This document shows, piece after piece, positions 4,651 through 56,200 of a stretch of DNA of 64,000 bases (positions are counted from its first letter, which is position 1; each line of letters opens with the position of its first letter). Under the pieces are notes generated by a model that worked only from the letters and a program-made list of their open reading frames with translations, was not told the DNA's origin and did not search any database. A program made the position numbers and the translations under genes. The stretch lies in the NCBI GenBank assembly GCA_041665445.1, contig JBAYIV010000001.1, forward strand, positions 6,334 through 70,333, read 5' to 3'. The stretch is from Minisyncoccota bacterium (GTDB lineage: Bacteria > Patescibacteriota > Minisyncoccia > UBA6257 > JAGOQP01).

Positions 4651-4857
4651 CGGAACCTCCTTTGTGAGCAGCACCAGCGCTGCGTTCTGCACATACTCAA
4701 ACACATCAATGATGTTTTTGCAATACCAATGTGTCGCACAATATTTTGTGGTACAATGGAAATGCACCATAAAAAATGAAGGGAGTGAGATCGGTTGTTT
4801 TTTCCCATCTTTCCATCTTTCCATCTTTAATTTTTTATATTTGATTTTTGCATTTTC

Positions 4858-27059: not shown

Positions 27060-28172
27060 TTATAAACCGCATTTTTGAATAGTCGCCGGTCCCCACAATC
27101 TCCAACTGCTCCCGTTTCCAGATAATTCGCACGCCTTTGCGATGTTATCGCTGGCACTCTGCGCGGCAGAGAGGCACTGCAAATACAACGCTCTATTGGT
27201 GACATTGCACGTCGGGTGACTGCCAGAAAAGGCATGATCAAAAGCGGTGGGACAATTCAGTCCACTAATGGTGTTTGCGCTGATGTTTATTTGAAATAGG
27301 CCAATGGAGACAGGGCTTCCATCGGCACATTTATCAGTGCCGCTTTGAGCCATTGGGTTCCCAGAACTTTCAATCATACAAACTCCACCAGCGATTTGAG
27401 CATTGCTTCCAAAACAAGAGCCCTGAAGCGCGGCCAGAGAGCACGGACCACTTGCCGGCGGCTGACATTGTCCTCCCGCTTGGCTCCCCACTGTTATTTG
27501 CAACGTGCAACTGTGTGTGGTGTCGTTCCCACCGCCCGTTGGGTCCGCCAGGATTGTCCCAAGAGACACGGTATATATTCCATTGTTTTGGAATGTGTGC
27601 GATGGTGAACCGTCTGAACTGCCAGCAGAACCATCTCCAAACGTCCAGGAAAAAGAGGCGGCCGCATCGACATCGGAAGAAAGAGCCACCGCAAGGGGAG
27701 ACGGACCAGACGATGGGGTCGCTGTGATAACACAGTCGCCGGTCCTGGCTCCAGAAGATGATCCCGAATTGCTCGGAAGCGTTGGGACGTTGGGCACTGT
27801 TGGATTTTTGAGATTGACCAACTCAGGATTGATAGTGTAGAGAATGATAAACCCGCCCAGCAACAGCACCACGCCGAAGATGGCGTTTTTGATAATATCA
27901 AGTGCGTCTCCTTTTGCCGCAGCATTGCCGCCGCTCGCCACATACTTCACACCTCCATACACGATCATAATCACCGCCGCACCGGCAACAATCCCGAGGG
28001 CATAATCATATAAACTTTTAACAAAATCGGCCGGGCTTTGTCCCTGTTGCGTAAACGAAGGCAGGCCCGCGCTGATAACATCAGCGTGCGCGGCGTGTCC
28101 AAAAAGACACAGAGCAATTCCGACAACCATTAAAAGAAAAACCTGTTTTTTTCGTAGATAACGCATGTTCAT
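27060..28172 (-). CDS. Membrane-anchored PKD-domain plus SLT-type lytic transglycosylase (VirB1-like function), 370 aa
   Basis: N-terminal TM region (…LGIVAGAAVIMIVYGGVKYVASGG…FGVVLLLGGFIILY…). PKD motif …FSWTFGDGSAGSSDGSPSHTFQNNGIYTVSL…. SLT motifs …MIESSGNP…GLFQI…. ATGA overlap with the upstream gene. Confidence 0.6.
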   Translation of the reverse strand: MNMRYLRKKQVFLLMVVGIALCLFGHAAHADVISAGLPSFTQQGQSPADFVKSLYDYALGIVAGAAVIMIVYGGVKYVASGGNAAAKGDALDIIKNAIFGVVLLLGGFIILYTINPELVNLKNPTVPNVPTLPSNSGSSSGARTGDCVITATPSSGPSPLAVALSSDVDAAASFSWTFGDGSAGSSDGSPSHTFQNNGIYTVSLGTILADPTGGGNDTTHSCTLQITVGSQAGGQCQPPASGPCSLAALQGSCFGSNAQIAGGVCMIESSGNPMAQSGTDKCADGSPVSIGLFQINISANTISGLNCPTAFDHAFSGSHPTCNVTNRALYLQCLSAAQSASDNIAKACELSGNGSSWRLWGPATIQKCGL

Positions 28173-29782: not shown

Positions 29783-31549
29783 TTACTGCCCCATAAGATC
29801 GCCCCCCTCTTCGCCGAGCAATTCTTGCGGCTTGGTGGTCACCACTCGATTTTCAAAGAATGACGCCACCACCTGAATGGCCACATGTTTCAATCCCGCA
29901 AAAAACAATCCTTGCCCCACGCCGGACTCAAGCAATAGATTTTTTTCCGCATCGGTAAGATTAAATGTTTTGCCGATGATATCGATACTTGCCGGCGCTT
30001 GTTTGAGTAAGAGCTGAAGCGACGAGTTGGTAATAATCGGCTTGCCATAGGGAGAACCAAGAAAGTCCTCCACCTCCTGCGTGATCGTGGTCAATCCCAG
30101 ATAATATTTGCGGCCGCGCTTTGCTAGCCCGAATAAAAACGCTGCGCCCTCCGGATATTTCATCAACACCCACGCTTCATCGATAACCAGCAAACGACGC
30201 TTGAGCTCCGATCGAACAATGTTCCAAATAAAGTTCAAAATCACATACATCGCGATCGGCCGCAGCTCTTCGTCCAAATCGCGCATTGAAAAAACAATCA
30301 AGCGGTTCCGCAAATCAATATTGGTGCGATGGTTGATAAAGCCGACGTAACTGCCTTCGGTAAACCGATAGAGCTTTTCGCCCATACTGCGCCCTCCCTC
30401 CATATTATGCAACACCGTCTGCAGATCCGACAAAAGTGGCGGATCGATTTTCAAAAAATTCGGATTGTCCGGCGTAATATCATACGAAGCGTACGTTTCC
30501 GTCAGTGCACGATCAAGCAGTGACTCCTCCTCAACGCTGATGTCGCCCAACATAATTTTCAAAAGACCCGTCAGGTTGAGAATGTGCGAACGGAAAACGT
30601 CGGCGGGATCTTCACCCTTGGGAACCTGCGGGATATCGAACGGATTAATATGCTGATCGGACGTTAAAGAAATTTTGAAATAAGTACCCCCAACCGAATC
30701 GCACAAATTTTTATATTCATCTTCCGGATCAATAACAATAACATCGGTCCCAATCATCAGCGACCGAAGAATCTCGAGTTTGCTTGCATATGATTTTCCG
30801 GATCCAGATTTGGCGAAAATAACCATGTTGCCGTTTTCCAGCGAAAAACGGTCGAAAATAACCAGCGAATTATTGTGCTGATTAATGCCGTAGAGAATAC
30901 CTGTTTCAGACGTGAGCTCGGTTGAGACGAAAGGGAAAAACGACGACACGGGGCCCGAATTCATCGGTGTCGTAATCATCAACTTGTCCTGCCCAAGCGG
31001 CAAGCACGAGGTGAGCCCCTCAATCTGCTGGAAAATAGCCGGCTTAATATAAATCAACTTACTTTCAAAAATATTTATTACCGTTTCCTCTAAGTCGTCC
31101 AGCTTCTTCAGCGAGTCGGCATAGATGGTGATGTAGACCGAGGTATCAAAAAGCCGTTCGCGAGCCTGTTGCAGGCTGTCGCGCAACGACTCAATGTCGG
31201 AAAATGCCGTCTCCAGCATCGGGTCGCGCACAAATCCCTTTTCTTGCCGATCGGAAAGTTCGGCCTCTATCTGCGCCGCCTTTTTGCGCAAATTCCGCAA
31301 CGCGAGCGCCGTATCAACGGGATGAACGAAGATTGACGCATCAAAATATTGCGGCAAGTTGATGATCGCCGAAAACCATCCCGTCGAAAGATACCGTGGA
31401 TACGAAAACACAAACAATGTGCGCGCAAACCGCTCGCCTATTTTGACATAGCTTTGGTTAACCTCCATGGCCGCGGGCGCGATGAGATTTTCCATGTCTC
31501 CCTCTTCTTGACCTGCGTATGGTTTTAAAACACGTATTTGATCTGCCAT
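29783..31549 (-). CDS. virB4: VirB4/TrbE/CagE-family T4SS ATPase, C-terminal ATPase portion (588 aa)
   Basis: Walker A …IFAKSGSGKSYASK…. Walker B …VIDEAWVLM…. Length and motif order match the VirB4 ATPase domain. Confidence 0.85.
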   Translation of the reverse strand: MADQIRVLKPYAGQEEGDMENLIAPAAMEVNQSYVKIGERFARTLFVFSYPRYLSTGWFSAIINLPQYFDASIFVHPVDTALALRNLRKKAAQIEAELSDRQEKGFVRDPMLETAFSDIESLRDSLQQARERLFDTSVYITIYADSLKKLDDLEETVINIFESKLIYIKPAIFQQIEGLTSCLPLGQDKLMITTPMNSGPVSSFFPFVSTELTSETGILYGINQHNNSLVIFDRFSLENGNMVIFAKSGSGKSYASKLEILRSLMIGTDVIVIDPEDEYKNLCDSVGGTYFKISLTSDQHINPFDIPQVPKGEDPADVFRSHILNLTGLLKIMLGDISVEEESLLDRALTETYASYDITPDNPNFLKIDPPLLSDLQTVLHNMEGGRSMGEKLYRFTEGSYVGFINHRTNIDLRNRLIVFSMRDLDEELRPIAMYVILNFIWNIVRSELKRRLLVIDEAWVLMKYPEGAAFLFGLAKRGRKYYLGLTTITQEVEDFLGSPYGKPIITNSSLQLLLKQAPASIDIIGKTFNLTDAEKNLLLESGVGQGLFFAGLKHVAIQVVASFFENRVVTTKPQELLGEEGGDLMGQ

Positions 31550-31561
31550 AAAATATGCTCG

Positions 31562-32260
31562 TTATGCCGCACCGCGCGGGGATGGGTGCGCTGTTTCTTT
31601 GGGAAGCTTTTTTTCTATTGTTTCCGGATTGTAGAGATTGTAGTAGAGCTCGGTCAACTCGCCGTCGTTGAGCACCACCGCACGCAAACCAATCTGCGAC
31701 AAGCCCGCGATAACTTGATCAACGCGTTGCTGCAATTGCACCGTCTGCTCCTCAAACGATTCTTGCTCCTCTGTTTTGTTTCCCTTCTTTTTCATAAAAG
31801 GAATGAAATCAGTAATGCTGCGACGCACTTCTTTCAACCCGCCGCTATCATACGGGATAATGGTAAAAAAAGTTTTGGTCATAATCTCATTATTTTTGAC
31901 CAACCCGCCAATATATTCAATGTATTCAGCTGTTTGCGTTTTGAGCAGCTGGCTTGTTTCCGCAACACGGATTTCCTCCATGCGCGCCAGATACGCATCA
32001 ATATTAAGTTTGCGCGAATGGACGATGGTCTGCAAAGAGAAGTCTAGTCCATTGAGAAAGTTTTGGTACGACGACGTGATGATGTCCTGTTCTTCTTGGG
32101 ATTTTAAGTCAAAATTGATCCCCGCCACCATTACCACGGCACGCAAACCACCGCTTTTAAGCGAAACCACCCCGTTTTTAATCTGTTTAACGTCAACAAA
32201 CCGCTGGGTCGAATCAGGCGCAACGGTTATTTTTTCTTTTTCAGTAATGCCTTGGGCCAT
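31562..32260 (-). CDS. VirB4 N-terminal domain encoded as a separate ORF (same frame as 29783..31549, separated by TAA + 4 codons)
   Basis: …VDVKQIKNGVVSLKSGGLRAVVMVAGINFDLKSQEEQDIITSSYQNFLNGLDFSLQTIVHSR… resembles the VirB4 N-terminal (CagE_TrbE_VirB) region. Start trimmed to MAQGITEK to avoid overlap with the VirB3-like gene. Confidence 0.5.
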   Translation of the reverse strand: MAQGITEKEKITVAPDSTQRFVDVKQIKNGVVSLKSGGLRAVVMVAGINFDLKSQEEQDIITSSYQNFLNGLDFSLQTIVHSRKLNIDAYLARMEEIRVAETSQLLKTQTAEYIEYIGGLVKNNEIMTKTFFTIIPYDSGGLKEVRRSITDFIPFMKKKGNKTEEQESFEEQTVQLQQRVDQVIAGLSQIGLRAVVLNDGELTELYYNLYNPETIEKKLPKETAHPSPRGAA

Positions 32261-32306
32261 ACAATACAATAAGTATACACGAAAAGAAGCCGCAAACAAA
32301 AAAGTC

Positions 32307-32831
32307 CTAGCGATAATCAATGCGCCGAGCAACTTCTTTCTCGCCGGTTGTCCGGCGGAAAACCTCAAATTGTTCCCGCACATCTTCAAGTTTCGGTTGC
32401 GGTTCTTTTTCCCGATGAGGGATGGGATTGCGGGTCGTGGAAAGCTCTTGCCACAATTTTGCCACGTTTGAATTTTTCTGCTGCGTTTCCCCCAGCGCCT
32501 GTCGTCGCGCGGCGATGACGACCGTGGGAATGGTGATCATTTCTTGTATCACGGGGCGTTTCCACAAAAAAACCTTGGGGCCCCAGAAAAATTCAACGGC
32601 GTAGATAGTGAGCATATAGAGCGGCCGCTCGTTTATCTTGATAAACGCAAATGATGCACCAGCACCCATGAGAATAATCGCCACCGGTATCCACGCCCAC
32701 AAAGCAAGGGTAAAGTAGAGGAAAAAACACGCCAGCGCTGACGTGGCGACAAAGCCGAATTGCTTGATGGTCAACGGACCAACAATCTTGCTTTCAGTAT
32801 CTATAAATTGAGGAACTTCAAACTGAGCCAT
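32307..32831 (-). CDS. VirB3/PrgI-like small membrane protein, 174 aa
   Basis: Two TM helices near the N-terminus (…FVATSALACFFLYFTLALWAWIPVAIILMGAGASFAF…). Sits immediately upstream of VirB4, as in T4SS loci. Confidence 0.45.
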   Translation of the reverse strand: MAQFEVPQFIDTESKIVGPLTIKQFGFVATSALACFFLYFTLALWAWIPVAIILMGAGASFAFIKINERPLYMLTIYAVEFFWGPKVFLWKRPVIQEMITIPTVVIAARRQALGETQQKNSNVAKLWQELSTTRNPIPHREKEPQPKLEDVREQFEVFRRTTGEKEVARRIDYR

Positions 32832-32882
32832 AAATCTTTCTTAGTATATCCCACCGCCGCTCTTTGTACAAAGCACAAAGAA

Positions 32883-34625
32883 TTATGATTTTCTAAAAAA
32901 AGAGAAGAACCCTCGCTTTTTTTGAGGAGCGGAAACTACCGGTGTTTGGCCATAGCCAACCGCCGGATATTGATCGTGTTTATCAACAGAGATGCCGACG
33001 GTTTGCGCGGCCCCCTGCGATGGTGGGGGAACTTGTACGTCAGCGACCGCTGGTGCCGCGCTTTGATGCGACGGCTGACTAGAAAGATTTTTTGAAAACC
33101 CACTATAGGAAAGGTTTTGATACTGTGATCCCGACCGCGCCTGCGCAACAGACGGATCGTCTCGCTTATGAATGATAACCGGACCCATGTCCACAACTTC
33201 ATTGGGGTCGATTGGTTTTTTATTCACCTCCTGTTGGCGAGGCAAACCCATACCACTCACCATAGGCGCGTCGGCATCTTTTGGTGCCGGAGTCGACGAG
33301 GCTAATGGCGCCATCTTCATGGGGCGAGATGGCATTGCCTCGTGCGCGGGCTGACCCGCCTGATATGGGTTACCCGAGGAGGAACCACCCTCTTCGCGCG
33401 TTTGTCTGACCTCAACGACAACATCGGGTTGCCGTGGCGCCTGTGCCGGTGGAGCCCATTGTATTGGACGAACTTGCGGCGGTGCCTGTTCTGGTTCTGC
33501 GACGCGTCCCGTTGGTTGGTTTAAAACCGGTTGAGTATTTATATTGCCGCCAAACGCAGAGGTTTGAGTGGGGAGGGGTTGTGGAGCGTTGTTCTGCGGA
33601 GCAATCGATACATTGACCGATGCTGGACTTGTGGGAGGCGTTGTTTCAATGGTTTTTTGAGAGATTTTTGTTTCCTGAGGATGAATAACAGGTGCTGACG
33701 GTAATGGAAGAATTTCTTTTTTCTCATTAGGATGTATTGGCTTTCCTGCTATTGGATGCGGCACGGGCATCACCTCCGGAAGACGCGAGTCTTCAATGAC
33801 CGGCAAAAGATCATGTTCTGGTTTTTTTATTTTTGGATCAAGTGCGCCGCTCGGCTTAACCGATGCCGGAGAAGATGGGTGGCGAGCGTTGAGCAGTGCG
33901 GAGTCGTCCGATGGTGCCGCGGCTGGCTGGCCCATGATGCGGCGAGAAGCGGCAATGTTCTCATTTTCTATCCCCCATAAGTCTTTAGTTGAAAGCGAAA
34001 AAATATCTTTCTCTGAATCCGGCGAAGGCGGAACGGGACGGCGAGATGCTCCCTCAACGTCTTGTTTTTTCTGGATAATGGACGGCTCAGATGATGGACT
34101 GGTTTCTTTTTGCTGAAGCGGACGGGACGCACGCGGCGGGACAAACGCACCAGTACCTCCCGATTCTTTCATCGCAAGAATTCTGGGACCCGCTTCTTCT
34201 TTTTTAAGGTTCACTGTTCCCTCGGGCTCGGGCGTTTTAAGATTTATTTGAGAAACAACGTCTGGTTTTTGAACGCTCGCCGCATCAATCACGCCCACTT
34301 TGAATTTCAAATAATTATCCTCGATGTCTTTGCGAATCGGCTCAAAAAGATTAGCGTCAATTTCTTGATATACCGCCAAGGCCGTTTTCTCATTAACCGC
34401 AAGCACTTCTTGAAGCTCGCGCATCGCGTCGCGATAGGGAAGAAAACCGAGAAAAACAAGATCGACGATTTTTTCTAGATCGTATCTATTATCGGGAGTT
34501 ATTTGATTTTTTTCAGCTATGCGATCAAGGTGATGGTCGTTGACAATAGAAAAAATAGCATCTCTTAAAACTTGCGAGATGTTTTCCCATCTTTCATTTA
34601 TCTGTTCACGAGAAATTCTAATCAT
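32883..34625 (-). CDS. Pro/Gln/Ser-rich, largely disordered protein with a structured roughly 115-aa N-terminal domain, 580 aa
   Basis: Continuous ORF in operon orientation. Composition is dominated by P, Q, S and A. No family recognised. Confidence 0.45.
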   Translation of the reverse strand: MIRISREQINERWENISQVLRDAIFSIVNDHHLDRIAEKNQITPDNRYDLEKIVDLVFLGFLPYRDAMRELQEVLAVNEKTALAVYQEIDANLFEPIRKDIEDNYLKFKVGVIDAASVQKPDVVSQINLKTPEPEGTVNLKKEEAGPRILAMKESGGTGAFVPPRASRPLQQKETSPSSEPSIIQKKQDVEGASRRPVPPSPDSEKDIFSLSTKDLWGIENENIAASRRIMGQPAAAPSDDSALLNARHPSSPASVKPSGALDPKIKKPEHDLLPVIEDSRLPEVMPVPHPIAGKPIHPNEKKEILPLPSAPVIHPQETKISQKTIETTPPTSPASVNVSIAPQNNAPQPLPTQTSAFGGNINTQPVLNQPTGRVAEPEQAPPQVRPIQWAPPAQAPRQPDVVVEVRQTREEGGSSSGNPYQAGQPAHEAMPSRPMKMAPLASSTPAPKDADAPMVSGMGLPRQQEVNKKPIDPNEVVDMGPVIIHKRDDPSVAQARSGSQYQNLSYSGFSKNLSSQPSHQSAAPAVADVQVPPPSQGAAQTVGISVDKHDQYPAVGYGQTPVVSAPQKKRGFFSFFRKS

Positions 34626-34650: not shown

Positions 34651-36750
34651 CTATACCAACTTCATTGCGTCACCAAATGCTTTGACGCGGGCATTTTTTG
34701 ACTTCCTCATCTCCGGAGCTAGTTTGGTAATGTCGCCACGTATGGCAGCAAATTTCACTGTCTCCGCCAACTCATCGGCAATTTGCTTATCAAGATTCAC
34801 CTTTCTCTCAACCAAAACCTCTACCTTCTTTTTGGACGCGACGACCGGTCTTCTGTTTTTGATGTCATCTTGATACTCTGTTTGTGCATTATTAATTTCT
34901 GCTTGCAATTTTGTTGGCAGATCGCGCTTATTGTCGGCGACCTGAGTGCTGTATTCATCCAGAACCACACCAGCCCCGTCCATAAAGAATTTCTCGCGAT
35001 CATTGGAATTGGTTATTTGAGCCGCCGTAGCCCTTGTTTTTGCCGGATCATCATAGGCAAGGTTATGTGTCTGATTACGATAGTCAATACTGGCTCCAGT
35101 GCCAAATTTTGCATTTAAGGCGCTGACGCCATTCTTGTCGGCAAAATATTTTCCTTGAGCGATGGCTTTCCCATCGTTTTTCATAAAACGAGCGTAATCA
35201 TCGGACGACATCACGGAAACCGCTTTGCCTGTTTCGGTCATGAACCGAGCCCTGTCGCCGGCCGCATATGCTTGAATCGCGCCTTCATTTAATCCGCGCG
35301 CAGCCAAAACAGCTTGCGCCTCTTTTCCTTTAGGGTTGTCTTTTTTCAATCCTTCATGAAGCGCAATTATTTCCCCCATACTATATTTCCCGCCGTCTCC
35401 ATCGGCCAAAACTTGAGCCATCGCCAATCGCCCCTGCGGACCGCCAATCATTCTTGCTAGTTCGGCTTTTTGTTTTCCGGTACCAGCGAGCTTTGCCTCA
35501 ACGTACGCTTTAGATTTTTCTTCCATAGCTTGAGTCCCCCGCGCATGCATTTGTGCCGCAGAGTCAAGGAACAGCGCTTTCCCCAGAGTTGTGCTCCCCG
35601 CCTTATTGAGTCCACCCTGGAGCTTTGCCCGCATGCTCTTGTCTCCCCCTGCGTTATAGGCACGGTTAGCGCCCCGCGTTCCATATTCCTTTGCTTTGCC
35701 CTTGGTATAATCGGCGACTTTCTTTGCGGAGCCGGTGGCCATCTGACCCCCATAGACACCAATTTTTGACGCCACCATCATGCCACCCATCAGCATAGCA
35801 ACCGCCATCAGCGACCCAACGATATTACTAAACGGCATCCCCGAAACCACATCTCCTCCTTTGGTGGTTAAGGCAGACATAAAACCGCTAAATCCCGGAT
35901 CCTGCGCCCGCCCGCCCACGCCGTTAATTGAGGCATAGAGCTGCATTGATAAATTAAGAAAAAACAAAACAGCCGGAGGGAAAATCATCCATTTTATAAA
36001 TTCATCCCACCAAGATTTCCAGTGTTTTTGCGTTGTGGGGAAAATCCACAGTAACCACACAATAGGCGAAAGCATCATTAAAAACGCCACAAAAAAGTAT
36101 CGCACCAGTAAAATAATGGCAAAACTCAACAATGTCATAAAAATAATAACCTGGATGAAAATACCAACGAGCGCTGTTATGGTGTCACTGATGTCGCTTG
36201 CGGCACTTGAAAAGAAAAAGGTTTTTATTTTATCCATCGCGGTAGAACTCGCATTCGTATACACAAGCGGGTTAAGCGCGCTCACCGTTTTTTCCGCCGC
36301 AATCAACGCCATGTCCCCGGCCGATCCGGTTCCCGATCCGGTCCCGCCCGCGATTGCCGTAAGATAATAATCGGAAAAATTTTGAGACACCACGAGAAAC
36401 GGCGAGATAATAGCCAAGCTAAAATTTACCAAGAGCGCCGCCACGATGAGTTTCCATAAAATCTGAGATGCGGAATAATTTTTCCAACGAAAAATAGTTG
36501 CAAAAGCAATAATAATAATCCCCAGGACAAATCCCAAATTTGCCAGATCACGAAACATTGACCACCCCTGCAAAATAAAACTATTCATTCCGTTCCAATC
36601 AAGATGCGTCAACGTTGAATTAAGCCACAACGCAAGAGCCACCAATAAACTGGCAAGTTTAATTAAAACCGTCACCAAACCCATGAGAAGCGTGGCGAGG
36701 GCCTTAACCACCGTGGCAACACTTGGCAAAAAACCTGTAAAAAGTGGCAT
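34651..36750 (-). CDS. VirB6/TrbL-like polytopic membrane protein with a hydrophilic C-terminal extension, 699 aa
   Basis: 6-8 TM helices in the N-terminal 330 aa (…IIIAFATIFRW…, …ALVGIFIQVIIFMTLLSFAIILLVRYFFVAFLMMLSPIVWLLWIFP…), then a soluble K/A/G-rich domain. Located in a T4SS locus. Confidence 0.55.
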   Translation of the reverse strand: MPLFTGFLPSVATVVKALATLLMGLVTVLIKLASLLVALALWLNSTLTHLDWNGMNSFILQGWSMFRDLANLGFVLGIIIIAFATIFRWKNYSASQILWKLIVAALLVNFSLAIISPFLVVSQNFSDYYLTAIAGGTGSGTGSAGDMALIAAEKTVSALNPLVYTNASSTAMDKIKTFFFSSAASDISDTITALVGIFIQVIIFMTLLSFAIILLVRYFFVAFLMMLSPIVWLLWIFPTTQKHWKSWWDEFIKWMIFPPAVLFFLNLSMQLYASINGVGGRAQDPGFSGFMSALTTKGGDVVSGMPFSNIVGSLMAVAMLMGGMMVASKIGVYGGQMATGSAKKVADYTKGKAKEYGTRGANRAYNAGGDKSMRAKLQGGLNKAGSTTLGKALFLDSAAQMHARGTQAMEEKSKAYVEAKLAGTGKQKAELARMIGGPQGRLAMAQVLADGDGGKYSMGEIIALHEGLKKDNPKGKEAQAVLAARGLNEGAIQAYAAGDRARFMTETGKAVSVMSSDDYARFMKNDGKAIAQGKYFADKNGVSALNAKFGTGASIDYRNQTHNLAYDDPAKTRATAAQITNSNDREKFFMDGAGVVLDEYSTQVADNKRDLPTKLQAEINNAQTEYQDDIKNRRPVVASKKKVEVLVERKVNLDKQIADELAETVKFAAIRGDITKLAPEMRKSKNARVKAFGDAMKLV

Positions 36751-40493: not shown

Positions 40494-41279
40494 CTAAAAA
40501 GAACCCGCAAACAAATAAAAAAGTCCCTCAAGCATCTCCGGTGAAAGCGTTTGGGGGCGATGTGTCGAATTAACACCGATCTGGCCACATCGGCCAACGA
40601 CATCGTCCCGAGAAACATTGGCGCACTCCAAAAGATTATTAAGGATCGTTTTTCTTGGGTGTCTAAACAAAATCCTCATAAACGCATAGTAACTCAAAAG
40701 AATGTGATGAGAAGGGAGCGATGCTCGCGTTTCAAACATCACCACAGCCGAATCCACCTCAGGCGGAGGAGAAAACAAACCACGCGGAACCGAAAACAGA
40801 ATAGTGGGTGATGCCCATGCTTGGACGATTGCAGCAAGAAGGTTCATGTGTGGCGGGTTTGCGCACAAACGAAGGGCCACCTCTTTTTGTATTAACAGCA
40901 CGGTGTGGATCGGCTTATAGCTCACATCACCCACAATGTGCAATAAACGTCCGGTAATATAATAAGGAATGTTCCCCACGAGCACATAGGGGGTTTTTTC
41001 TTTTTCCAAACGAGCCACCAGCAGAGGAAGGGTTACCAGCGCGTTTCCTTCGATGACCTCGACCGACCAAAATCGCTTATCGGCGCGCAATTCATCGGCA
41101 AGGCGCGAATCGCGCTCAAGAACAGTGACGCGCGCACTGTTCTTGCATAAATATTTTGTAAGCTCTCCGTGCCCCGGGCCTATCTCAATAATAACCGCAC
41201 CCGCGCTTTGACTGGCGGCGGCTATTTTTTCAAGCGTTAATTCACTTGTGAGAAAATGCTGGCCTAAGCGACGCCTCAT
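40494..41279 (-). CDS. rsmA: 16S rRNA (adenine1518/1519-N6)-dimethyltransferase KsgA/RsmA
   Basis: MRRRLGQHFL…IIEIGPGHGELT… SAM-binding motif. 261 aa. Confidence 0.9.
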   Translation of the reverse strand: MRRRLGQHFLTSELTLEKIAAASQSAGAVIIEIGPGHGELTKYLCKNSARVTVLERDSRLADELRADKRFWSVEVIEGNALVTLPLLVARLEKEKTPYVLVGNIPYYITGRLLHIVGDVSYKPIHTVLLIQKEVALRLCANPPHMNLLAAIVQAWASPTILFSVPRGLFSPPPEVDSAVVMFETRASLPSHHILLSYYAFMRILFRHPRKTILNNLLECANVSRDDVVGRCGQIGVNSTHRPQTLSPEMLEGLFYLFAGSF

Positions 41280-41282: not shown

Positions 41283-43106
41283 TCAATCATACTCTATGTA
41301 TCGCTCCTCGTCATCAAGGTCGCGCGTGTGACCAGGGACAGTGCGTGCCGCATCACCCTCAAAAATGACCGTCTCGGGCGGCACCTCATATAAAAAACGA
41401 GATGGGATTTGATAAAAGTGCAACGACAGCGTCTGGCGTGCGCGCGTCATAGCCACATACATTAACCGACGTTCTTCCTCGAGGTCCTCGGCCTTCAAAA
41501 GAGACCGCTGGTGCGGCATCAATCCCTCGCTGACGCCCGCCACACAAACATCATCAAACTCAAGTCCTTTGGCAAGGTGAATGGTCATCAGATGAATACG
41601 CGCAGCGCTTTTCTCTTCGCGCGTTTTGCGTGGCGCACCGTCCAAAGGACTTGCCAGCGTTACTTTTTCGAGAAACTCGGGAAGGGATGCGAATTGTTCG
41701 GCAAAATAAATAAGCTCGGCGATATTTTCGTATCGATCAGCATAATTAGCAAACTCTTTTTTAATAAGATCCCGATACTGTGCGACGTGCAAAAATAATT
41801 TAATATAATCAGCCGGCGACGCATTGGGAGGCGCGGCCGCCAGTGCTTCGCGCAACGGGCGCGTAATTTTTTTTGGGAACGTTTTTTCCAGCCGCTCGCC
41901 GCTAATCTGATCGTTTGCATTAACCGCAACGCGCAACACCGCCAGGATATCTTTCACTTCCTTGCGTTCATAAAACGTCATGGCGCCAAACAATGCATAC
42001 GGAACCTCTTTTTCTAAAAGCATTTGTTCTAAAGCGCGGCTCTGCGCATTGGTGCGATACAAAATACCCACCAGCGCGCCTGCGCGCGCACGCGCCGCCG
42101 CCGCATCCACAATCCATTCAGCTTGATCAAATTCGTCGGCGTGTTCCACCACGCGAAGCGGAGCGCCTTGGCTATTTTCCGTCCACAGCGTTTTGCGTTT
42201 CTGGAATTGATTGCGCGCAATAACACCCGATGATGCGGCAACAATGCTTTGTGTTGAGCGGTAATTTTGTTCTAAAAAAATAATCCGCGTTCCCGGCCAC
42301 GTTTTTTCAAAATCCAAAAAATTCCGAAAGTCTGACGATCGGAATCCATAAATCGCTTGTGCGTCATCACCCACCGCCATAATATTGCCGTGCGTGCGCG
42401 CTACCAGCGACGCCAACGCGTGCTGTGCCGGATTGGTATCTTGATACTCATCGATAAGCACATGCGAAAATCGAGATTGGTATCGCGCCAGAACCGCCGG
42501 ATCTTTTTGCCACGCCACAATAACTTTATAAATCAAATCATCAAAATCAAATCCATTGTTCGCCTCCAAGTACCGCTCATAATCAGAAAAGAGAGCCCAC
42601 ACCAGCGCGTCATCGGTTGTTCCCAGTGCGGCGTCCGCAGAGAGAAATTCGTTTTTTATTTTCCCAAACAAACGGCTTGCTTGCGCGGGACTTATTTTTT
42701 TGGGATCAATGCCGCGATTTTTAAGCACGCGCTTGATCGCACGCCCCGCGTCATCGGCATCAAAAATAGTAAACCCATTGGTCCGCCCGAACATTCCCGC
42801 CTCGCGGCGCAAAACCCACGCACCAAATGCATGGAAGGTGCTCACAAATGGTTCGCCGCCCGAAACACCCGCCTGCGCCAGCGCGTCAGCAACGCGCCGC
42901 TTCATTTCTCCGGCAGCCTTATTGGTAAAAGTGATGGCTAAAATTCGTTCTGGCGAGACTTTCCGATGGGTGATGAGAAAAACAAGCCGTGCGGTAAGCG
43001 TCTTGGTTTTCCCCGAACCAGCTCCCGCGACAACCAAAATCGGCCCATCGGGAGCGGTGGCGGCTTCTCGCTGTTTTTCGTTCAAGTCGTCAAAAAAATC
43101 ATTCAT
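41283..43106 (-). CDS. UvrD/PcrA/Rep-family ATP-dependent DNA helicase (short, 607 aa)
   Basis: Motif I …VVAGAGSGKTKTLT…, motif II DEYQDTN, and the other SF1 motifs in order. Confidence 0.9.
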   Translation of the reverse strand: MNDFFDDLNEKQREAATAPDGPILVVAGAGSGKTKTLTARLVFLITHRKVSPERILAITFTNKAAGEMKRRVADALAQAGVSGGEPFVSTFHAFGAWVLRREAGMFGRTNGFTIFDADDAGRAIKRVLKNRGIDPKKISPAQASRLFGKIKNEFLSADAALGTTDDALVWALFSDYERYLEANNGFDFDDLIYKVIVAWQKDPAVLARYQSRFSHVLIDEYQDTNPAQHALASLVARTHGNIMAVGDDAQAIYGFRSSDFRNFLDFEKTWPGTRIIFLEQNYRSTQSIVAASSGVIARNQFQKRKTLWTENSQGAPLRVVEHADEFDQAEWIVDAAAARARAGALVGILYRTNAQSRALEQMLLEKEVPYALFGAMTFYERKEVKDILAVLRVAVNANDQISGERLEKTFPKKITRPLREALAAAPPNASPADYIKLFLHVAQYRDLIKKEFANYADRYENIAELIYFAEQFASLPEFLEKVTLASPLDGAPRKTREEKSAARIHLMTIHLAKGLEFDDVCVAGVSEGLMPHQRSLLKAEDLEEERRLMYVAMTRARQTLSLHFYQIPSRFLYEVPPETVIFEGDAARTVPGHTRDLDDEERYIEYD

Positions 43107-45127: not shown

Positions 45128-46390
45128 TTAAGGAGTGGACGACGTTGACGACGTCGTGATGGTTGATGGTATCACCAATGGAGGAACGACCAATGGATTT
45201 GCCTTAAGACGATTGACGATATCTACTATTTGATTATATGACGTCGCCAAAATCAAGTACAGGCTCCCGTCCGACCCGGACATAAAACCATACTCAAAAA
45301 CACGGCCAACCTTGCTGTTGTAAACCAAGTAACGCACATGCACAACATTTCCAACCAAACCATCTTTAAACGCGGGCATTTGCGGCACGGTGGTTGTAGA
45401 TATGAATAAATGCCCCACATCAACGGGATTGCTTTCTATATATTGCCCAATGGTTGTTGTTGCTTGAGCGCCCGACGCGTTCAATTTAAAAACAAACCCC
45501 AGCTTAGCTCCTCCGGTCTTATCAAAATAAAACCATGAGGTGAAATCGGGATCAACCATGCTCGCCAGCGACTGGCCGAACGAAGGGAAGTATGAAGAAA
45601 GAATCGTCGGACTCTGCGCGGGTGTGTTTGACGCATCTACTATTGTTATGTCTTTAACACTCCCGACAGAAAGTCCTTCCGTCCCCGCCATTGCTACAAC
45701 AGCAGCGCGAACAGCATCTGGACCGCCCGCCGGTAGCGTCACTGTGACTGTTTGTGCTGGAGCAAGTATGAGCGATAGATGCGCCATGGGCTGTACAATA
45801 GTCGGCGCTTGAACTTGTTCTTGTGATGGGGAAGATGAGGCAGCTAATTGCTCCGTTGAACTCGTCACCACCGGAACCGATGTTGCTGGAGCACTCACCA
45901 GCGCACCCACCAAATAATAAGCCCCCAATCCCAAAGCAAGCGCCACAAGAATCGCACCAACAATCATAAAAATTGTCTTTGTTTTTGACCCGCTTGGCGA
46001 TGTGCTGGGCGCGGCGACGGGCACCGACCCCACACCACCATCCTGCACGAAAGCATCACTCTCCCCAGAAGGAGCGGGCGGCGATTGAAAATCTTGAGCA
46101 ACTGATGCGGAAGCGGATACGGGAGAAAAGGTGGAGACATCAGGAGACATATTGGGAATCTGCGGCACGTTAGCCATCTGCGACTGCGGCATTTGTCCTC
46201 CCGTCTCTTTTACTGATTGCACGTCGGAGGCCATGGTATGGATGCTTACGCGCTCGTCGGGTGCGGGCGGCGGAGGAGGAACGCCCTGCTGCCCGCTCAC
46301 GCTTGCCGCTGGCGATGGTTGTGGCGGGACACCCGCCGCACCAAATTGATTTTGCGACCCGTATTCGTTCTGTTGATTGTTTTCGTTCAT
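45128..46390 (-). CDS. Membrane-anchored protein with a Pro/Gln-rich N-terminal tail, about 420 aa
   Basis: Start trimmed to MNENNQQ. Single TM (…IFMIVGAILVALALGLGAYYLV…), then an extracytoplasmic domain. Confidence 0.45.
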   Translation of the reverse strand: MNENNQQNEYGSQNQFGAAGVPPQPSPAASVSGQQGVPPPPPAPDERVSIHTMASDVQSVKETGGQMPQSQMANVPQIPNMSPDVSTFSPVSASASVAQDFQSPPAPSGESDAFVQDGGVGSVPVAAPSTSPSGSKTKTIFMIVGAILVALALGLGAYYLVGALVSAPATSVPVVTSSTEQLAASSSPSQEQVQAPTIVQPMAHLSLILAPAQTVTVTLPAGGPDAVRAAVVAMAGTEGLSVGSVKDITIVDASNTPAQSPTILSSYFPSFGQSLASMVDPDFTSWFYFDKTGGAKLGFVFKLNASGAQATTTIGQYIESNPVDVGHLFISTTTVPQMPAFKDGLVGNVVHVRYLVYNSKVGRVFEYGFMSGSDGSLYLILATSYNQIVDIVNRLKANPLVVPPLVIPSTITTSSTSSTP

Positions 46391-46509
46391 ACAAAATATC
46401 TGTTCTCGCGCGCCGAGAAAAATTGTCCGGCGGCACAAAAACGCTTAATATATTTTTAAGTATATCACACCTTTCACACGCACACAAAAAGCTATGGTAT
46501 ACTAAAATA

Positions 46510-48936
46510 ATGAATTCTACCGACCGCGGAAAAACTATCTTTCTTATAGATGCCCACTCCCTCATCCACCGCTGTTTCCACGCCCTGCCGCCATTCACCA
46601 ACGCCGCCGGAGAGCCGGTAGGAGCGCTTTATGGCATCGCCAGCGTTCTCCTTAAAATCGTTGAGCAAAAAAGACCCGATTACGCCGTAGCACTCTTTGA
46701 TCGACCCGAGCCCACGTTCCGCAAAGAAAAATTTTTGGCCTATAAGGCCCAGCGTCCAAAAGCACCCGACGAGTTGGTGGCACAGCTTATTTCCGCCCAC
46801 GAACTTTTTAAAACATTTTCCATCGCCACCCTAGAAGTCCCGGGATTTGAGGGCGACGACCTTATTGGCACCTGCGCCGCCCAGTTTTCAAAAGAAAAAA
46901 ACCTACAAGTCGTCATCTTAACCGGCGACCTTGATGCGCTTCAATTAGTACGCGATGGCCACGTGATAGTTGAAACATTTAAGAAGGGAATTTCTGATAC
47001 GCTTATGTATGACGAAGCGGCGGTGAAAAACCGCTACGGCATCACCCCAGCCCAGCTCATTGATTATAAAGCATTGGTGGGCGATCAATCCGACAATATC
47101 CCAGGAGTGATGGGCGTAGGGCCCAAAACTGCCGAAACTATTTTGCAGACATATGGATCACTTGAAAATTTTTTTACACACGGACAAACCGACCGCGCCT
47201 ATGAAAAAATAATTTCCCACAAAGACGAAGCCCTCCTCTCGCAGGACCTCGCGACCATCCGCACCAACGCACCCATCAACCCCCTTCTTACCAGCCTTAC
47301 GTGCGCTCCCAATTGGGGAAAAGTCACTGTCTTTTTTGAAAAAAATGGATTTACGTCGCTGATAAAGCGCATCCCGCACGCGCCATCCGCCTCACTGGAA
47401 CCACAGAGGGGCCCGCGATCTACATCGCCGGCCCCCACTCACGCAACCCAGCAGACGCTCCTTTCGCCCCAAAAAAATCCAACACCATCAGCCACCGCAC
47501 ACAAAACCATTCTCTATAATGCAAAAGAGGTGCTAAAAAGATCTGCCGCCACCCAACCCGTTTTTGACCTCATGATCGCCGCGCAACTGCTGGGCATCGA
47601 AACATCATCATGGGAAGATTTATCGCGTACGCTTTTCAAAAAAGAATTGCCCTACAATGAACTTGCGCCGCGCGCGCAAAAAGTTCTCACCGAAAAGCTG
47701 GCGCACGCAGGCCTCAATGATGTGTTTGAAAAAATCGAAACGCCGCTCATCCCCATTGTTGCAGCCATGGAAACGGCCGGCGTTCTCGTCGACCCTTCAG
47801 CACTCTCCGCCGTCACCACCGACATCACCGACGCAATTTCCGCACAAGAAAAAAAAGTAAAAAGCCTCATGAGCGCCGGCAGCGCCATCAACCTCAATTC
47901 CCCCAAACAGCTCTTGGGTTATTTTCAAAACACCATGGGGTTGAAAATAAAATCAACCTCGGCAGACGCCTTGGAAAAAATCGCGCTGAAAAATCCCTCG
48001 CCGCTTTTTAACGAACTTCTCGCCTACCGCGAACTGTTTAAACTAAAAACAACGTATTGCGACGCGTTAACGCGCCTGGTCGCGCCCGACGGACGCATCC
48101 ACCCCACCTTTCTCCAGTTGGGCGCGGCCACCGGTAGAATGTCGTGCCAAAACCCCAACCTGCAAAACATTCCCCAGGAATCAACGTGGTCGGCGCGCAT
48201 CAGAAATGTTTTCGTCGCGCCTACCGATGCAACGCTGGTGGCGTTTGATTATTCGCAGATTGAATTGCGCGTCCTGGCGCATCTATCGCGCGATCCGCAC
48301 ATGACCGAAGCGTTTATCGCCGGCAAAGACATCCACACCATCACCGCCTCGCGAGTTTTTGGCGTCCCCGCAAACGACGTCACCAAAGAAATGCGCCGCC
48401 TGGCAAAAACACTCAACTTCGGCATGATCTACGGCATGGGATCGCGCGCCTTTGCCCAAACCGCCGGCATCTCCGCTGTGCAGGCAAAAGAATTCATTTC
48501 AAAATATTTTTCAGAATTTTCACACGTTAAAGAATGGCAGCGACGCATTCTTGAAGAGGCGCGCGCAACCGGCGTAGCACGCACCGCCACCGGCCGCATG
48601 CGCCCGCTCCCCGCACTCCACTCCTACAATCAATGGATGGCGTCCGAGGCCGAACGCATGGCAATTAATATGCCCACCCAAGGCCTTGCCGCCGACATCC
48701 TTAAACTCGCGACGATTAAAACCAACGCGTACATAGAAAAAAACCATCTCCATGACGACATTCGCCTTATTCTTTCCATCCACGACGAATTGATTTTTGA
48801 GATGCGCCAGGCAACACTTGAAAAAAACACCAAGCTGCCCGCGGCGCTGGCGAGCGAAATGGAAACCGCTTATACACTTTCGGTCCCCCTGAAAGTTGAA
48901 TATAAAACGGGTGTTTGTTGGGGAGAGATGAAATAA
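46510..48936 (+). CDS. polA: DNA polymerase I (5'-3' exonuclease + polymerase domains), about 809 aa
   Basis: Start trimmed to MNSTDRGKTIFLIDAHSLIHRCFHA (FEN-like N-terminus). Polymerase motifs …DYSQIELRVLAHLS… and …HDELIFE…. Confidence 0.9.
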   Translation: MNSTDRGKTIFLIDAHSLIHRCFHALPPFTNAAGEPVGALYGIASVLLKIVEQKRPDYAVALFDRPEPTFRKEKFLAYKAQRPKAPDELVAQLISAHELFKTFSIATLEVPGFEGDDLIGTCAAQFSKEKNLQVVILTGDLDALQLVRDGHVIVETFKKGISDTLMYDEAAVKNRYGITPAQLIDYKALVGDQSDNIPGVMGVGPKTAETILQTYGSLENFFTHGQTDRAYEKIISHKDEALLSQDLATIRTNAPINPLLTSLTCAPNWGKVTVFFEKNGFTSLIKRIPHAPSASLEPQRGPRSTSPAPTHATQQTLLSPQKNPTPSATAHKTILYNAKEVLKRSAATQPVFDLMIAAQLLGIETSSWEDLSRTLFKKELPYNELAPRAQKVLTEKLAHAGLNDVFEKIETPLIPIVAAMETAGVLVDPSALSAVTTDITDAISAQEKKVKSLMSAGSAINLNSPKQLLGYFQNTMGLKIKSTSADALEKIALKNPSPLFNELLAYRELFKLKTTYCDALTRLVAPDGRIHPTFLQLGAATGRMSCQNPNLQNIPQESTWSARIRNVFVAPTDATLVAFDYSQIELRVLAHLSRDPHMTEAFIAGKDIHTITASRVFGVPANDVTKEMRRLAKTLNFGMIYGMGSRAFAQTAGISAVQAKEFISKYFSEFSHVKEWQRRILEEARATGVARTATGRMRPLPALHSYNQWMASEAERMAINMPTQGLAADILKLATIKTNAYIEKNHLHDDIRLILSIHDELIFEMRQATLEKNTKLPAALASEMETAYTLSVPLKVEYKTGVCWGEMK

Positions 48937-50918: not shown

Positions 50919-52289
50919 ATGGACTTAAAAAATGCGTGGGAAAAGACGCTTTCGGAGATAGAACTCCAAATATCAAAACCAAACTTTTTGACATGGTTTA
51001 AAAACAGCCGCCTTATTAAAAAAGACGACACTACCGGTACGGTGGTGGTGGGGGTGGCAAATAATTTTGCGAAAGAGTGGATTCGAAATAAATATCACAA
51101 AACCATTCTTGAGCTTTTACAAAAATCAGACCAGGGCATCTGCCGCATCGAATACATCGTGCTCGCCGGCGACGCGGAGGAAAAGTTATTTACCGCAATT
51201 AAAAAAGATCCCGATCGAATTGCTCAACAGGAGGGCATTTTTGAGTTGTCAGTTGATCCAGAAAGCAACCTGCATCCGCGCTACAATTTTAAAAGTTTTG
51301 TTGTCGGCTCATCAAACGAGCTGGCATACGCGGCATCAATGGCGGTTGCGCGAGACGTGGGGAAAAAATATAATCCCCTCTTTATTTATGGGGGGACGGG
51401 GCTGGGGAAAACCCACCTCATACAAGCCATTGGCAATGAAATTATTAAAACCTATCGTAATCGCGTGAAAGTAAAATATGTCCCCTCTGAGCGTTTTGTA
51501 AATGATGTCATTTGGGCCATCCGCTCAAAGCGAACCGAGGACATCAAAAATAAATACCGCACCATTGACGTTCTTATTATCGACGATATTCAGTTTATCG
51601 GCGGAAAGCCCGCGAGCGAAGAAGAGTTTTTTCACACATTCAACATCCTGCATCAAAACAATAAACAAATTATCATTTCTTCCGATCGTCCCCCCGCCGC
51701 GATCCCCACACTCGAAGAGCGTCTTCGGTCACGCTTTGAGGGCGGGATGATTGTCGATGTTTCCTTCCCTGATTATGAGATGAAAATGGCAATTATTAAA
51801 AACAAGGTTCAAGACAAGGGATTTGAGCTCTCGGATAGCGTGTGCCATGTTATTGCCTCAAAAATACAAAGAAACATCAGGGAAATAGAGGGGATTATTA
51901 ATAAATTGTATTTCTATAAAGAAATTAAAAACACTCCCATTGACGTGAAAGTTGCCGAGGACATCATCAACGCAACCATTCAACAAAGCGCGGCCAACAT
52001 TAACCCAAACCAAATTCTTAAGTCGGTGGCTTCGTTTTTTGAAGTCTCTCAAAATGATCTTATTACCTCGTCGCGACGCAAAGAAATCGTTCTTCCGCGA
52101 CAAGTGGTTATGTTTTTGATGCGGGATATGTTGGGGATGTCTTATCCGGACATTGGGGATAAGCTGGGGAAGCGCGATCACACCACCGCGATACACTCTT
52201 TTGAAAAAATAGCGCGTGAAATAACCACCGATCGAATGTTAAATCAAAAAATTATCCTTATTAAAGAATTAATCAATAAAAATCCTTAA
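50919..52289 (+). CDS. dnaA: Chromosomal replication initiator DnaA (about 456 aa)
   Basis: Start trimmed to MDLKNAWEK. AAA+ Walker A …GGTGLGKTHL…. C-terminal DNA-binding domain …ITSSRRKEIVLPRQVVMFLMRDMLGMSYPDIGDKLGKRDHTTAIHS…. Confidence 0.95.
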   Translation: MDLKNAWEKTLSEIELQISKPNFLTWFKNSRLIKKDDTTGTVVVGVANNFAKEWIRNKYHKTILELLQKSDQGICRIEYIVLAGDAEEKLFTAIKKDPDRIAQQEGIFELSVDPESNLHPRYNFKSFVVGSSNELAYAASMAVARDVGKKYNPLFIYGGTGLGKTHLIQAIGNEIIKTYRNRVKVKYVPSERFVNDVIWAIRSKRTEDIKNKYRTIDVLIIDDIQFIGGKPASEEEFFHTFNILHQNNKQIIISSDRPPAAIPTLEERLRSRFEGGMIVDVSFPDYEMKMAIIKNKVQDKGFELSDSVCHVIASKIQRNIREIEGIINKLYFYKEIKNTPIDVKVAEDIINATIQQSAANINPNQILKSVASFFEVSQNDLITSSRRKEIVLPRQVVMFLMRDMLGMSYPDIGDKLGKRDHTTAIHSFEKIAREITTDRMLNQKIILIKELINKNP

Positions 52290-52432
52290 CACAGGATTTC
52301 CTTCTTTTTCCACAAAGTTATACACATGCACTTTATTAAAAAAACCCTTATTTTCCTTTAAGATCTCACCACTATCCACTATCCACAGGCACTACTACTC
52401 CTACTACTATTTATATTTATATATAAGAACAC
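52290..52432. promoter_or_regulatory. dnaA-dnaN intergenic region with tandem DnaA-box-like repeats (CCACTATCCACTATCCACAGG) followed by an AT-rich tract (TATTTATATTTATATATAAG); candidate oriC unwinding region
   Basis: Two TATCCAC(A) 8/9 matches in tandem, about 30 bp upstream of a roughly 25-bp stretch that is more than 85% AT, directly before the dnaN start. Confidence 0.5.
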
Positions 52433-53554
52433 ATGAACATCGTCATACTAAAAAACAACATTAAAGAGGGACTTGCTATTATTGCCGGGGCGCACAAAGA
52501 AGGCTCTCACTTGCCGGTGCTGAAAAATTTTCTTTTCGTTGCCCATAATGACGTGGTGCAGCTCACTTCGACTGATTTGGAACTTGCGATGCAGTATACT
52601 GTTTCGGCAAAAATTATTAATGACGGCAGTATTGCTATTCCTTTTTCCATATTCTCTCAAATTATCAGCAATCTTTCTTCTGAGCGAATAAGTTTTGAAC
52701 ACAAAGGATCATCGCTTCTCGTGGTGAGTGATAATTATAAAGCAAAAATAACAACCGCTAACACCGATGAATATCCGATCATTCCAGTAATTGAAGATGG
52801 AAAAGCTCAACAATTCACTTTCGACCCAGATGCATTTATTGATGGATTGGCGGCGGTTTCATCGGCGTGTCAAATATCGGACATCCGGCCGGAATTAAGC
52901 GGAGCGTATGTCTCGTACAAGGGCGGTGTGTTGAAGTTTGTTGCGACTGACAGTTTTCGGCTCGCTGAAAAAATAGTTTCAGAAAAAAAATACGAAACAA
53001 CGCTTACTACAGATATCGCGTGTATTATTCCGCTCAAAACAATCCAAGAAGTTGTGCGTGTTTTTTCTCTTAAAAAAGACGGAAAAATTACCATGCGGTT
53101 TGACGATCATCAAATAGAATTTAAAACCGAACACATTTCAATTATTTCAAGACTTATTGAGGGAAAGTTTCCTGACTACAGCGTTATTATTCCGGGTCAA
53201 TTTTCAACCGAGGTGGTTTTAAAAACGAGCGATGTTATCGCGGCGGTGAAAGTAACGAGCTCGCTTTCGAATCGATTGCATGAGGTGAAGTTTGTTATTG
53301 ATGATACGTTGAAAAATATTCAAATCATTTCAATGAGTCAGGAGTTTGGTGAGAGCGAATATATTCTTCCGGCAAAAATAAAAGGGCAAACAAACAAAAT
53401 AACTTTTAACTGGCGCTTTGTTCTTGATGGGCTTAAAAATATTAAAACAGAAAATGTTCTTATGGGATTTAACGGCGAGGACAAACCAACGGTTTTTAAA
53501 TCCCCCGACGATACACTGTTTCTTTATATTGTTATGCCAATTAAATCAGCGTAG
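52433..53554 (+). CDS. dnaN: DNA polymerase III β sliding clamp
   Basis: 373 aa with the three-domain β-clamp pattern. MNIVILKNNIKEGLAIIAGAH…. Immediately follows dnaA. Confidence 0.95.
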   Translation: MNIVILKNNIKEGLAIIAGAHKEGSHLPVLKNFLFVAHNDVVQLTSTDLELAMQYTVSAKIINDGSIAIPFSIFSQIISNLSSERISFEHKGSSLLVVSDNYKAKITTANTDEYPIIPVIEDGKAQQFTFDPDAFIDGLAAVSSACQISDIRPELSGAYVSYKGGVLKFVATDSFRLAEKIVSEKKYETTLTTDIACIIPLKTIQEVVRVFSLKKDGKITMRFDDHQIEFKTEHISIISRLIEGKFPDYSVIIPGQFSTEVVLKTSDVIAAVKVTSSLSNRLHEVKFVIDDTLKNIQIISMSQEFGESEYILPAKIKGQTNKITFNWRFVLDGLKNIKTENVLMGFNGEDKPTVFKSPDDTLFLYIVMPIKSA

Positions 53555-53555
53555 A

Positions 53556-53592
53556 CAAAAAACACCCTTAAAAATTTAAGGGTGTTTTTTGT
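53556..53592. terminator. Bidirectional rho-independent terminator between dnaN and the PBP gene
   Basis: AAAAA-ACACCCTTA-aaaatt-TAAGGGTGT-TTTTTT. Confidence 0.6.
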
Positions 53593-53616
53593 CACGGCAC
53601 ATTGCCGTTTTAGTGG

Positions 53617-55848: not shown

Positions 55849-56085
55849 TTAGGCGCCCTCTTCGTTGTCGCCGTATGCATCAGCGTCATCGTATGCATCA
55901 GCGTCATCTTCGTCGAGCTCATCCTCCTCCTCTTCTCCGCCCTCTATAAAATCCTCCTCGTTAAAATCGTCGCTCTCTTTTTCCTCCTCTTCGCCTGCGT
56001 CATCGTTGGTTGAGTTGGTCGCGCTCATTGCGCCAACTTCTTCGGATAAATCGTCTTGATTCTTTTTTTGTTTTGTGGCGAGCAT
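55849..56085 (-). CDS. Small, extremely acidic (Asp/Glu-rich) protein, about 79 aa; start uncertain
   Basis: …DDAGEEEEKESDDFNEEDFIEGGEEEEDELDEDDADAYDDADAYGDNEEGA. Co-oriented with its neighbours. No clear SD, and the opposite-strand ORF is Ser-rich low complexity. Confidence 0.35.
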   Translation of the reverse strand: MLATKQKKNQDDLSEEVGAMSATNSTNDDAGEEEEKESDDFNEEDFIEGGEEEEDELDEDDADAYDDADAYGDNEEGA

Positions 56086-56200
56086 AAGGATTTGATTAAA
56101 TAAAACCTGCGTTGTTTTTGTGGTGTGTGTCATACAAACGTGGCTCACAAACGCGTTATTGTTTTTTAATGTCTCCACTATACTCAAAAGACTTTGTTTG

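Follow-up and report, generated by a model that had tools for sequence, protein, structure and literature searches.

VirB4, the ATPase of type IV secretion systems (T4SS), is in its textbook form a single polypeptide of ~800 amino acids (aa). The stretch of DNA analysed here, 64,000 nucleotides (nt) of contig JBAYIV010000001.1 from a Minisyncoccota bacterium (assembly GCA_041665445.1; hereafter the window, to whose whole length all coordinates refer), divides VirB4 between two adjacent minus-strand open reading frames (ORFs), which encode a TrsD-like protein of 232 aa (the N-piece) and a VirB4 ATPase of 588 aa (the C-piece). The closest described system is the one set out in the T4SS survey of Patescibacteria by Quiñonero-Coronel et al. 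(Microb Genom 2025, PMC12102498). TrsD, which has no assigned function there and is remotely homologous to the N-terminal part of VirB4, is the most abundant T4SS component of Patescibacteria in that survey, with 2,272 homologues of which 1,664 lie next to virB4. The TrsD homologue of Candidatus Southlakia epibionticum ML1 is listed there as essential (citing Wang et al., Cell 2023), and the T4SS cluster is often found near dnaA, rnpA and ksgA.

A second, more distant counterpart is the trsC-trsD-trsE series (traC-traD-traE) of the staphylococcal plasmids pSK41 and pGO1 (MPF_FATA, pGO1 subclass), from which the prototype TrsD comes and where a VirB3-like protein, a TrsD of ~230 aa and a VirB4-type ATPase are encoded in the same order as in the window. 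In pSK41, trsC (VirB3-like) is followed by trsD (227 aa), a 14-nt spacer and trsE, which encodes an ATPase of 672 aa. Staphylococcal TrsE, like the C-piece, is a VirB4-type ATPase without the N-terminal ~180 residues. Single-chain VirB4 proteins (TrwK of R388, PDB 7o42 and 7o41; CD1110/PrgJ of Gram-positive integrative and conjugative elements; TraC of F) have the domain order that the two window proteins would have if joined, but they are one polypeptide instead of two, the break in the window falling inside the N-terminal domain. In established T4SS structures, the protomers are held together by the VirB4 N-terminal domains, which also touch VirB3 and VirB8 at the membrane (PMC12857230); docking on VirB3 is seen in solved Gram-negative systems. 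VirB3-VirB4 fusions, for example on Campylobacter plasmids, as mentioned in PMC12102498, illustrate that the covalent connectivity of the VirB3/VirB4-N/VirB4-C module is evolutionarily plastic, although as fusions they run in the direction opposite to a fission.

An earlier note on this DNA had described the VirB4 of the window as interrupted by an in-frame TAA, and had offered as possible reasons a genuine two-chain VirB4, translational readthrough or reinitiation, a mutation that had recently inactivated the gene, and an error of sequencing or assembly. Our results favour the first of these: the same split is found in 76/76 related genomes and both genes are under selection, so that the word 'interrupted' does not hold. 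We consider it very probable that the window carries a genuine two-gene VirB4, the normal form in the ultra-small Patescibacteria, which arose by ancient fission. The feature is real and ordinary; published work already describes it, and databases carry it as an annotation.

The coordinates and the peptide reading of that note were exact when the minus strand was read again. The junction runs CCA TCC CCG CGC GGT GCG GCA TAA CGA GCA TAT TTT ATG GCA GAT CAA, that is, PSPRGAA, stop, RAYF and then MADQIRV, and the two ORFs do share a frame (32389-31549 = 840, divisible by 3). A longer, TTG-started version of the N-piece ORF, extending to 32389, was rejected: it overlaps the PrgI gene and is supported by no homologue. 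The database protein P0001, annotated as Candidatus Paceibacterota, is identical to the N-piece over exactly 232 aa.

The identity of the two ORFs as VirB4 parts was upheld by profile searches. By its matches, the C-piece is a bona fide VirB4-type T4SS ATPase: it scored 380.2 bits (cutoff 325, 2e-113) against NCBIfam NF045971 conju_CD1110, a model of VirB4 type, over profile positions 185-733 of 752, and 96.5 bits (cutoff 25.8) against PF19044, with further Pfam matches to P-loop_TraG (1.8e-27) and AAA_10. Its residues 216-571 matched PDB 4ag5, the C-terminal domain of VirB4 (1e-44). The N-piece, homologous to the first ~200 residues of VirB4, gave weak collinear matches at the N-terminal positions of four models (CD1110 9-119, VirB4_CagE 18-178, VirB4_plasma 100-253 and TrsD/TraD 26-142). 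Coverage of the CD1110 profile by the two pieces is complementary, and the small protein therefore supplies the segment that the ATPase gene lacks. The division into an N-terminal domain and an ATPase domain proposed earlier was correct as to the VirB4 parts but not as to the border: since the ATPase domain of 4ag5 aligns only from C-piece residue ~216, it is the N-terminal domain itself that is cut, near position 180-240 of the TIGR00929 profile.

PF26593 (TraC-like) is the precomputed annotation on P0001 and on all 120 listed homologues. The N-piece stayed below the cutoff of NCBIfam NF041427 TrsD/TraD (27.5 bits versus 200, E 2.4e-6); with the TrsD of staphylococcal and enterococcal plasmids it shares remote homology and an analogous function, but it is not a member of NF041427. 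Against the N-piece profile, pSK41 TrsD is collinear from end to end, albeit weakly (hhalign E 4e-4, probability 35%), and residue 38 of TrsE aligns with residue 23 of the C-piece, so that the breakpoint is equivalent in the two systems. The sequences are nevertheless very remote, with identities of 18% (N-piece and TrsD) and 25% (C-piece and TrsE), and the staphylococcal genes belong to a conjugative plasmid system that includes a relaxase and a coupling protein, whereas the window cluster is chromosomal. Neither a relaxase nor a coupling protein was found among the window ORFs scanned. In a fold comparison, the best structural match of the N-piece model was TrwK.

A natural fused form exists. 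P0122, a single-chain VirB4 of 797 aa from a related Candidate Phyla Radiation (CPR) genome (L089 544-2937, contig CAZTUR010000004.1, GCA_964615945.1), is collinear with both pieces, being 52% identical to the N-piece and 62% to the C-piece; together the two pieces therefore make one VirB4. Its gene adjoins prgI and lies close to rnpA, yidC, dnaA and dnaN. P0122 is either a re-fusion or an unfissioned relic.

The distribution of the split was analysed in 80 loci from different GTDB species, each encoding a protein 49-81% identical to the N-piece and all belonging to Paceibacterota, Wolfebacteria or other CPR; 76 of them were evaluable. All 76 are divided at the same place, with a stop 10-25 codons past an invariant ELYYNLYNP and an ATG of its own for the ATPase part. 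The comparison of orthologues suggested in the earlier note thus found two genes consistently, as for a genuine split and not a disruption. The best 120 database homologues of the N-piece are all 206-238 aa long, and among the best 150 representatives of its 50%-identity clusters 149 are not full length, the remaining one being P0122. One locus (L012, DAOOCG010000001.1, ~4610-4720) appeared as a fused ORF in the automated scan; the ORF runs through a masked N stretch and was set aside as an artefact.

The junction itself varies widely. It ranges from -86 to +452 nt across the 76 loci: the genes overlap in 15 (ATGA and similar, up to 86 nt), and spacers measure 0-10 nt in 28, 11-40 nt in 17, 41-200 nt in 11 and more than 400 nt in five. 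Each of these last five holds a complete, unrelated small gene between the halves (Table 1), of the PD-(D/E)XK family PDDEXK_3 (GxxExxY-type) in three loci and of the four-helix-bundle family 23S_rRNA_IVP in two; two small, apparently mobile gene families thus seem to recur at this spot. Frame +1 relative to gene 1 is the commonest for gene 2 (35 loci), ahead of +2 (28) and 0 (13). The shared frame of the two window ORFs is accordingly a coincidence without information, since it is expected by chance for one third of adjacent same-strand genes and the relatives show all frames, overlaps and intervening genes. In the closest relatives (79-85% identical) the spacers are CTTCTATTTATT, TCGTACGAGAAT, TAACTCTTTATAAAT and TTATTTGTTATTCTCT (12, 12, 15 and 16 nt), none of them similar to the CGAGCATATTTT of the window, while the flanking coding sequence is conserved, including MADQIRVLKPYAGQEEGD (MADQIRVLKPY...) from the virB4 ATG onward. 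On this comparison, the TAA is the ordinary stop of gene 1 and the ATG 12 nt further on the ordinary start of gene 2, because the split position, the reading frames and the gene order are conserved in dozens of species and the spacer evolves freely, as non-coding DNA does.

These junctions also bear on the most durable of the other explanations, namely that programmed or leaky readthrough of the TAA yields a single full-length VirB4 in this lineage, alone or beside the two chains. The two ORFs are in frame and only four sense codons apart, three close relatives likewise have in-frame spacers (12, 12 and 15 nt), and P0122 demonstrates that a fused protein is viable. However, the frame is not conserved: in-frame junctions are rarer than the one third expected (13/76; binomial P = 0.0013, phylogenetic non-independence ignored), a deficit explained by the fact that stop/start overlaps cannot be in frame. 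The 15-nt spacer TAACTCTTTATAAAT, carried by L085 and L086, creates a tandem TAATAA; the 16-nt spacer TTATTTGTTATTCTCT of L087 is out of frame; and the translated spacers are unconserved (RAYF, LLFI, SYEN). No stable structure was found at the junction, and an Rfam scan of the window returned two tRNAs only, with neither a conserved RNA nor a recoding element where the two ORFs meet. Both release factors recognize TAA, and no stop codon is less leaky. It is also the commonest ordinary stop in the window, ending 22 of the 41 genes examined (TAG 15, TGA 4). We therefore judge readthrough to be very improbable. An alternative genetic code was discarded as well, as TAA, TAG and TGA all end ordinary conserved genes of the window.

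A recent nonsense mutation that inactivated an intact virB4 and left a pseudogene is less probable still. It would agree with the single polypeptide of the textbooks and with the fused 797-aa protein of one related genome, but the split position is the same down to ~50% identity, in the 76 species and in the 149 cluster representatives mentioned above, and gene 2 has its own conserved ATG and N-terminus. Nei-Gojobori estimates show strong purifying selection on both genes: comparisons of the window with its closest relatives gave a dN/dS of 0.02-0.05 for each, with dS saturated (at least 1.6). In addition, the homologous pair is listed as essential in S. epibionticum in PMC12102498. Nor is a false stop created by sequencing or assembly error, conceivable for a metagenome-assembled genome, at all credible, as the identical 232-aa product and the same gene pair (232 aa, 12 nt, 588 aa) are recorded in JGI, NCBI and Logan assemblies and every evaluable relative has a stop at the equivalent place.

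Some observations weigh against a two-gene VirB4 as proposed here. In the closest sub-clade, four of five distinct junctions are in frame (12, 12, 12 and 15 nt), a bias attributable to shared ancestry, and trace readthrough may occur there. The structure model of the N-piece has moderate confidence (pLDDT 64.6, pTM 0.53), and a PDB sequence search with the N-piece alignment profile returned chance matches to ribosomal S5 only (E >= 0.4). The match to staphylococcal TrsD is remote, both in bits (27.5, cutoff 200) and by hhalign (probability 35%, E 4e-4). Finally, both the binding of the two chains to each other and the manner in which gene 2 is translated are inferred.

With regard to expression, essentially no Shine-Dalgarno (SD) sequence was found upstream of the 41 long ORFs of the window. 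The observation that the virB4 ATG has a weak SD or none, made in the earlier note, is correct, but the conclusion that coupling or reinitiation would be needed does not follow: SD absence is a property of the genome, and thus says nothing about this junction. The missing SD was accordingly discarded as evidence for coupling. TATACT-like -10 hexamers (TAYAHT, within 45 nt upstream) lie 8-30 nt before the ATG in 13/41 genes (background 3.6%), a proximity that suggests very short or absent 5' leaders in the window. Such a hexamer precedes prgI and the trsD-like gene and none precedes the virB4 ATG, for which reason the trsD-like gene and virB4 are probably co-transcribed. The virB4 start lies in A/U-rich RNA whose degree of structure does not exceed that of shuffled sequences (z +1.14). 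The start appears compatible with either SD-independent initiation, on which every gene of this SD-less genome must rely, or termination-reinitiation, coupling being suggested by the very short or overlapping junctions of many relatives.

A consensus scan of 26-37 kb was not usefully above background: promoter-like sites numbered 21 where 13.3±3.6 were expected, and terminators were as frequent as expected. The sigma-70-like match that scored best in the region (31628-31657, minus strand; TTGACC-18-TACAAT, 10/12) falls within the trsD-like gene, and the virB4 ATG follows 79 nt downstream. This match coincides with the invariant ELTELYYNLYNP codons and is uninformative: the -10-like part, found in 58/68 relatives, is largely forced by Tyr-Asn codons, and the -35-like part is present in 31/68. 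We treat this internal promoter as a candidate.

A mechanism consistent with the two-gene VirB4 can be outlined. In an ancient gene fission, the first ~200 residues of VirB4 would have been left as a free-standing TrsD-like (Pfam TraC-like) protein, and the remainder, which consists of the ATPase domain preceded by the latter half of the N-terminal domain, would have become a separate gene directly downstream, with the order after the VirB3-like prgI kept. The pair would be transcribed together, and gene 2 translated either through coupling of termination to reinitiation or by ribosomes that start without an SD on the unstructured, A/U-rich spacer. The two chains would then reassemble non-covalently into VirB4, the TrsD-like chain binding the rest of VirB4 and the adjacent PrgI/VirB3 and so anchoring the ATPase to the membrane channel. 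By analogy with single-chain structures (PMC12857230) and with the natural fusion P0122, binding of the N-piece to both the C-piece and PrgI/VirB3 is probable.

The surroundings of the pair (Table 1) run in the order VirB6-like, unknown, PrgI, TrsD-like, VirB4, unknowns and pilin-PKD-lysozyme, with the same synteny in relatives. This cluster is an instance of the Patescibacteria chromosomal T4SS of PMC12102498: the lineage (Paceibacterota), the PrgI/VirB3, TrsD-like, VirB4, VirB6-like and VirB2-like pilin genes and the nearby KsgA, a context described there for Paceibacteria, all agree, the trsD-like gene and virB4 are adjacent, with PrgI and other T4SS genes close by, the split is conserved with independent starts, and nothing substantive differs in the window. 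The passages of the survey consulted here do not spell out that the adjoining VirB4 lacks exactly the TrsD portion, nor that rare fused forms such as P0122 occur.

Table 1. Positions of the VirB4 gene pair, its putative control elements and its neighbours in the window, and of the genes inserted at the same junction in five relatives.
Feature	Position	Strand	Remarks
TrsD-like gene (VirB4 N-terminal portion as a separate 232-aa protein)	31562..32260	-	Pfam PF26593 TraC-like; start ATG 32260, stop TAA 31564..31562
Non-coding spacer CGAGCATATTTT, 12 nt	31550..31561	-	A/T-rich, without SD
virB4 proper, 588 aa	29783..31549	-	Second half of the VirB4 N-terminal domain (residues ~1-215) and P-loop ATPase domain, Walker A GSGKS; ATG 31549..31547
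PrgI/VirB3-like gene	32307..32831	-	Directly upstream of the TrsD-like gene; PF12666 PrgI 27.8 bits, cutoff 27; same position in relatives
580-aa gene, no family match	32883..34625	-	Between the VirB6-like and PrgI genes; syntenic 565-595 aa genes in L081, L084, L086, L090
VirB6/TrbL-like polytopic membrane protein (weak match)	34651..36750	-	TrbL E 0.007, below cutoff; syntenic L084 gene carries PF19590 TrbL_3
T4SS pilin-like protein, 370 aa	27060..28172	-	Pilin domain PF18895, PKD and lysozyme-like SLT_3; syntenic 365-aa gene in L081/L082
KsgA (RrnaAD)	40494-41279	-	Flanks the T4SS cluster
UvrD-type helicase	41283-43106	-	Flanks the T4SS cluster
DNA polymerase I	46261-48936	+	Flanks the T4SS cluster
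TATACT, -10-like hexamer	32272..32277	-	17 nt upstream of the TrsD-like ATG
Further -10-like hexamers upstream of long ORFs	32843-32848; 29748-29753		
Gene inserted between trsD-like and virB4, L004	4677-5066		
Gene inserted between trsD-like and virB4, L018	~4630-5050		
Gene inserted between trsD-like and virB4, L043	~1410-1860		
Gene inserted between trsD-like and virB4, L036	~4630-5060		
Gene inserted between trsD-like and virB4, L063	~4680-5100		

Several features of the window stand apart from the VirB4 question. The protein encoded at the end of the T4SS cluster, downstream of virB4 (27060-28172), joins a pilin to a cell-wall hydrolase, an unusual architecture. Neither dnaA nor dnaN turned up among the window ORFs scanned against Pfam. 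A tRNA-Ile with anticodon UAU (60860-60936, minus strand) lies next to a tRNA-Val(UAC) at 60156-60230; most bacteria have a lysidine-modified CAU tRNA in place of tRNA-Ile(UAU). The G+C content is ~0.40 at 52001-54000 and 56001-58000 versus ~0.50 elsewhere, and the GC skew changes sign around 52-58 kb.

A broader proposal, which we regard as rather doubtful, is that a single ancient fission is common to the pGO1-type plasmids of Firmicutes and all Patescibacteria, with occasional re-fusion (P0122), and has been kept because it permits independent amounts of adaptor and ATPase, at a stoichiometry other than 1:1. The equivalent breakpoint in pSK41 TrsD/TrsE makes a shared fission compatible with the data; in a weaker variant, the sub-clade of the window would produce trace full-length protein by readthrough of the in-frame 12-nt spacer. 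If the proposal is true, the free N-terminal chain sets the amount of the PrgI/VirB3-bound membrane adaptor independently of the ATPase ring.

To what has been published, the present analysis adds that the segment missing from the neighbouring VirB4 is exactly the one that the TrsD-like protein provides, that the breakpoint lies inside the N-terminal domain at a place equivalent to that of staphylococcal TrsD/TrsE, and that overlaps, any of the frames and insertions of selfish genes are tolerated at the junction, while at least one natural VirB4 is re-fused or was never split. Structural studies of the docking of a two-chain VirB4 on VirB3/PrgI could draw on these details. They also guard against mis-annotation, as pipelines that expect a VirB4 of ~800 aa could call such loci pseudogenes, frameshifts or recoding sites. 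Across a huge bacterial radiation, an essential-looking T4SS has the two-gene VirB4 as its standard form.

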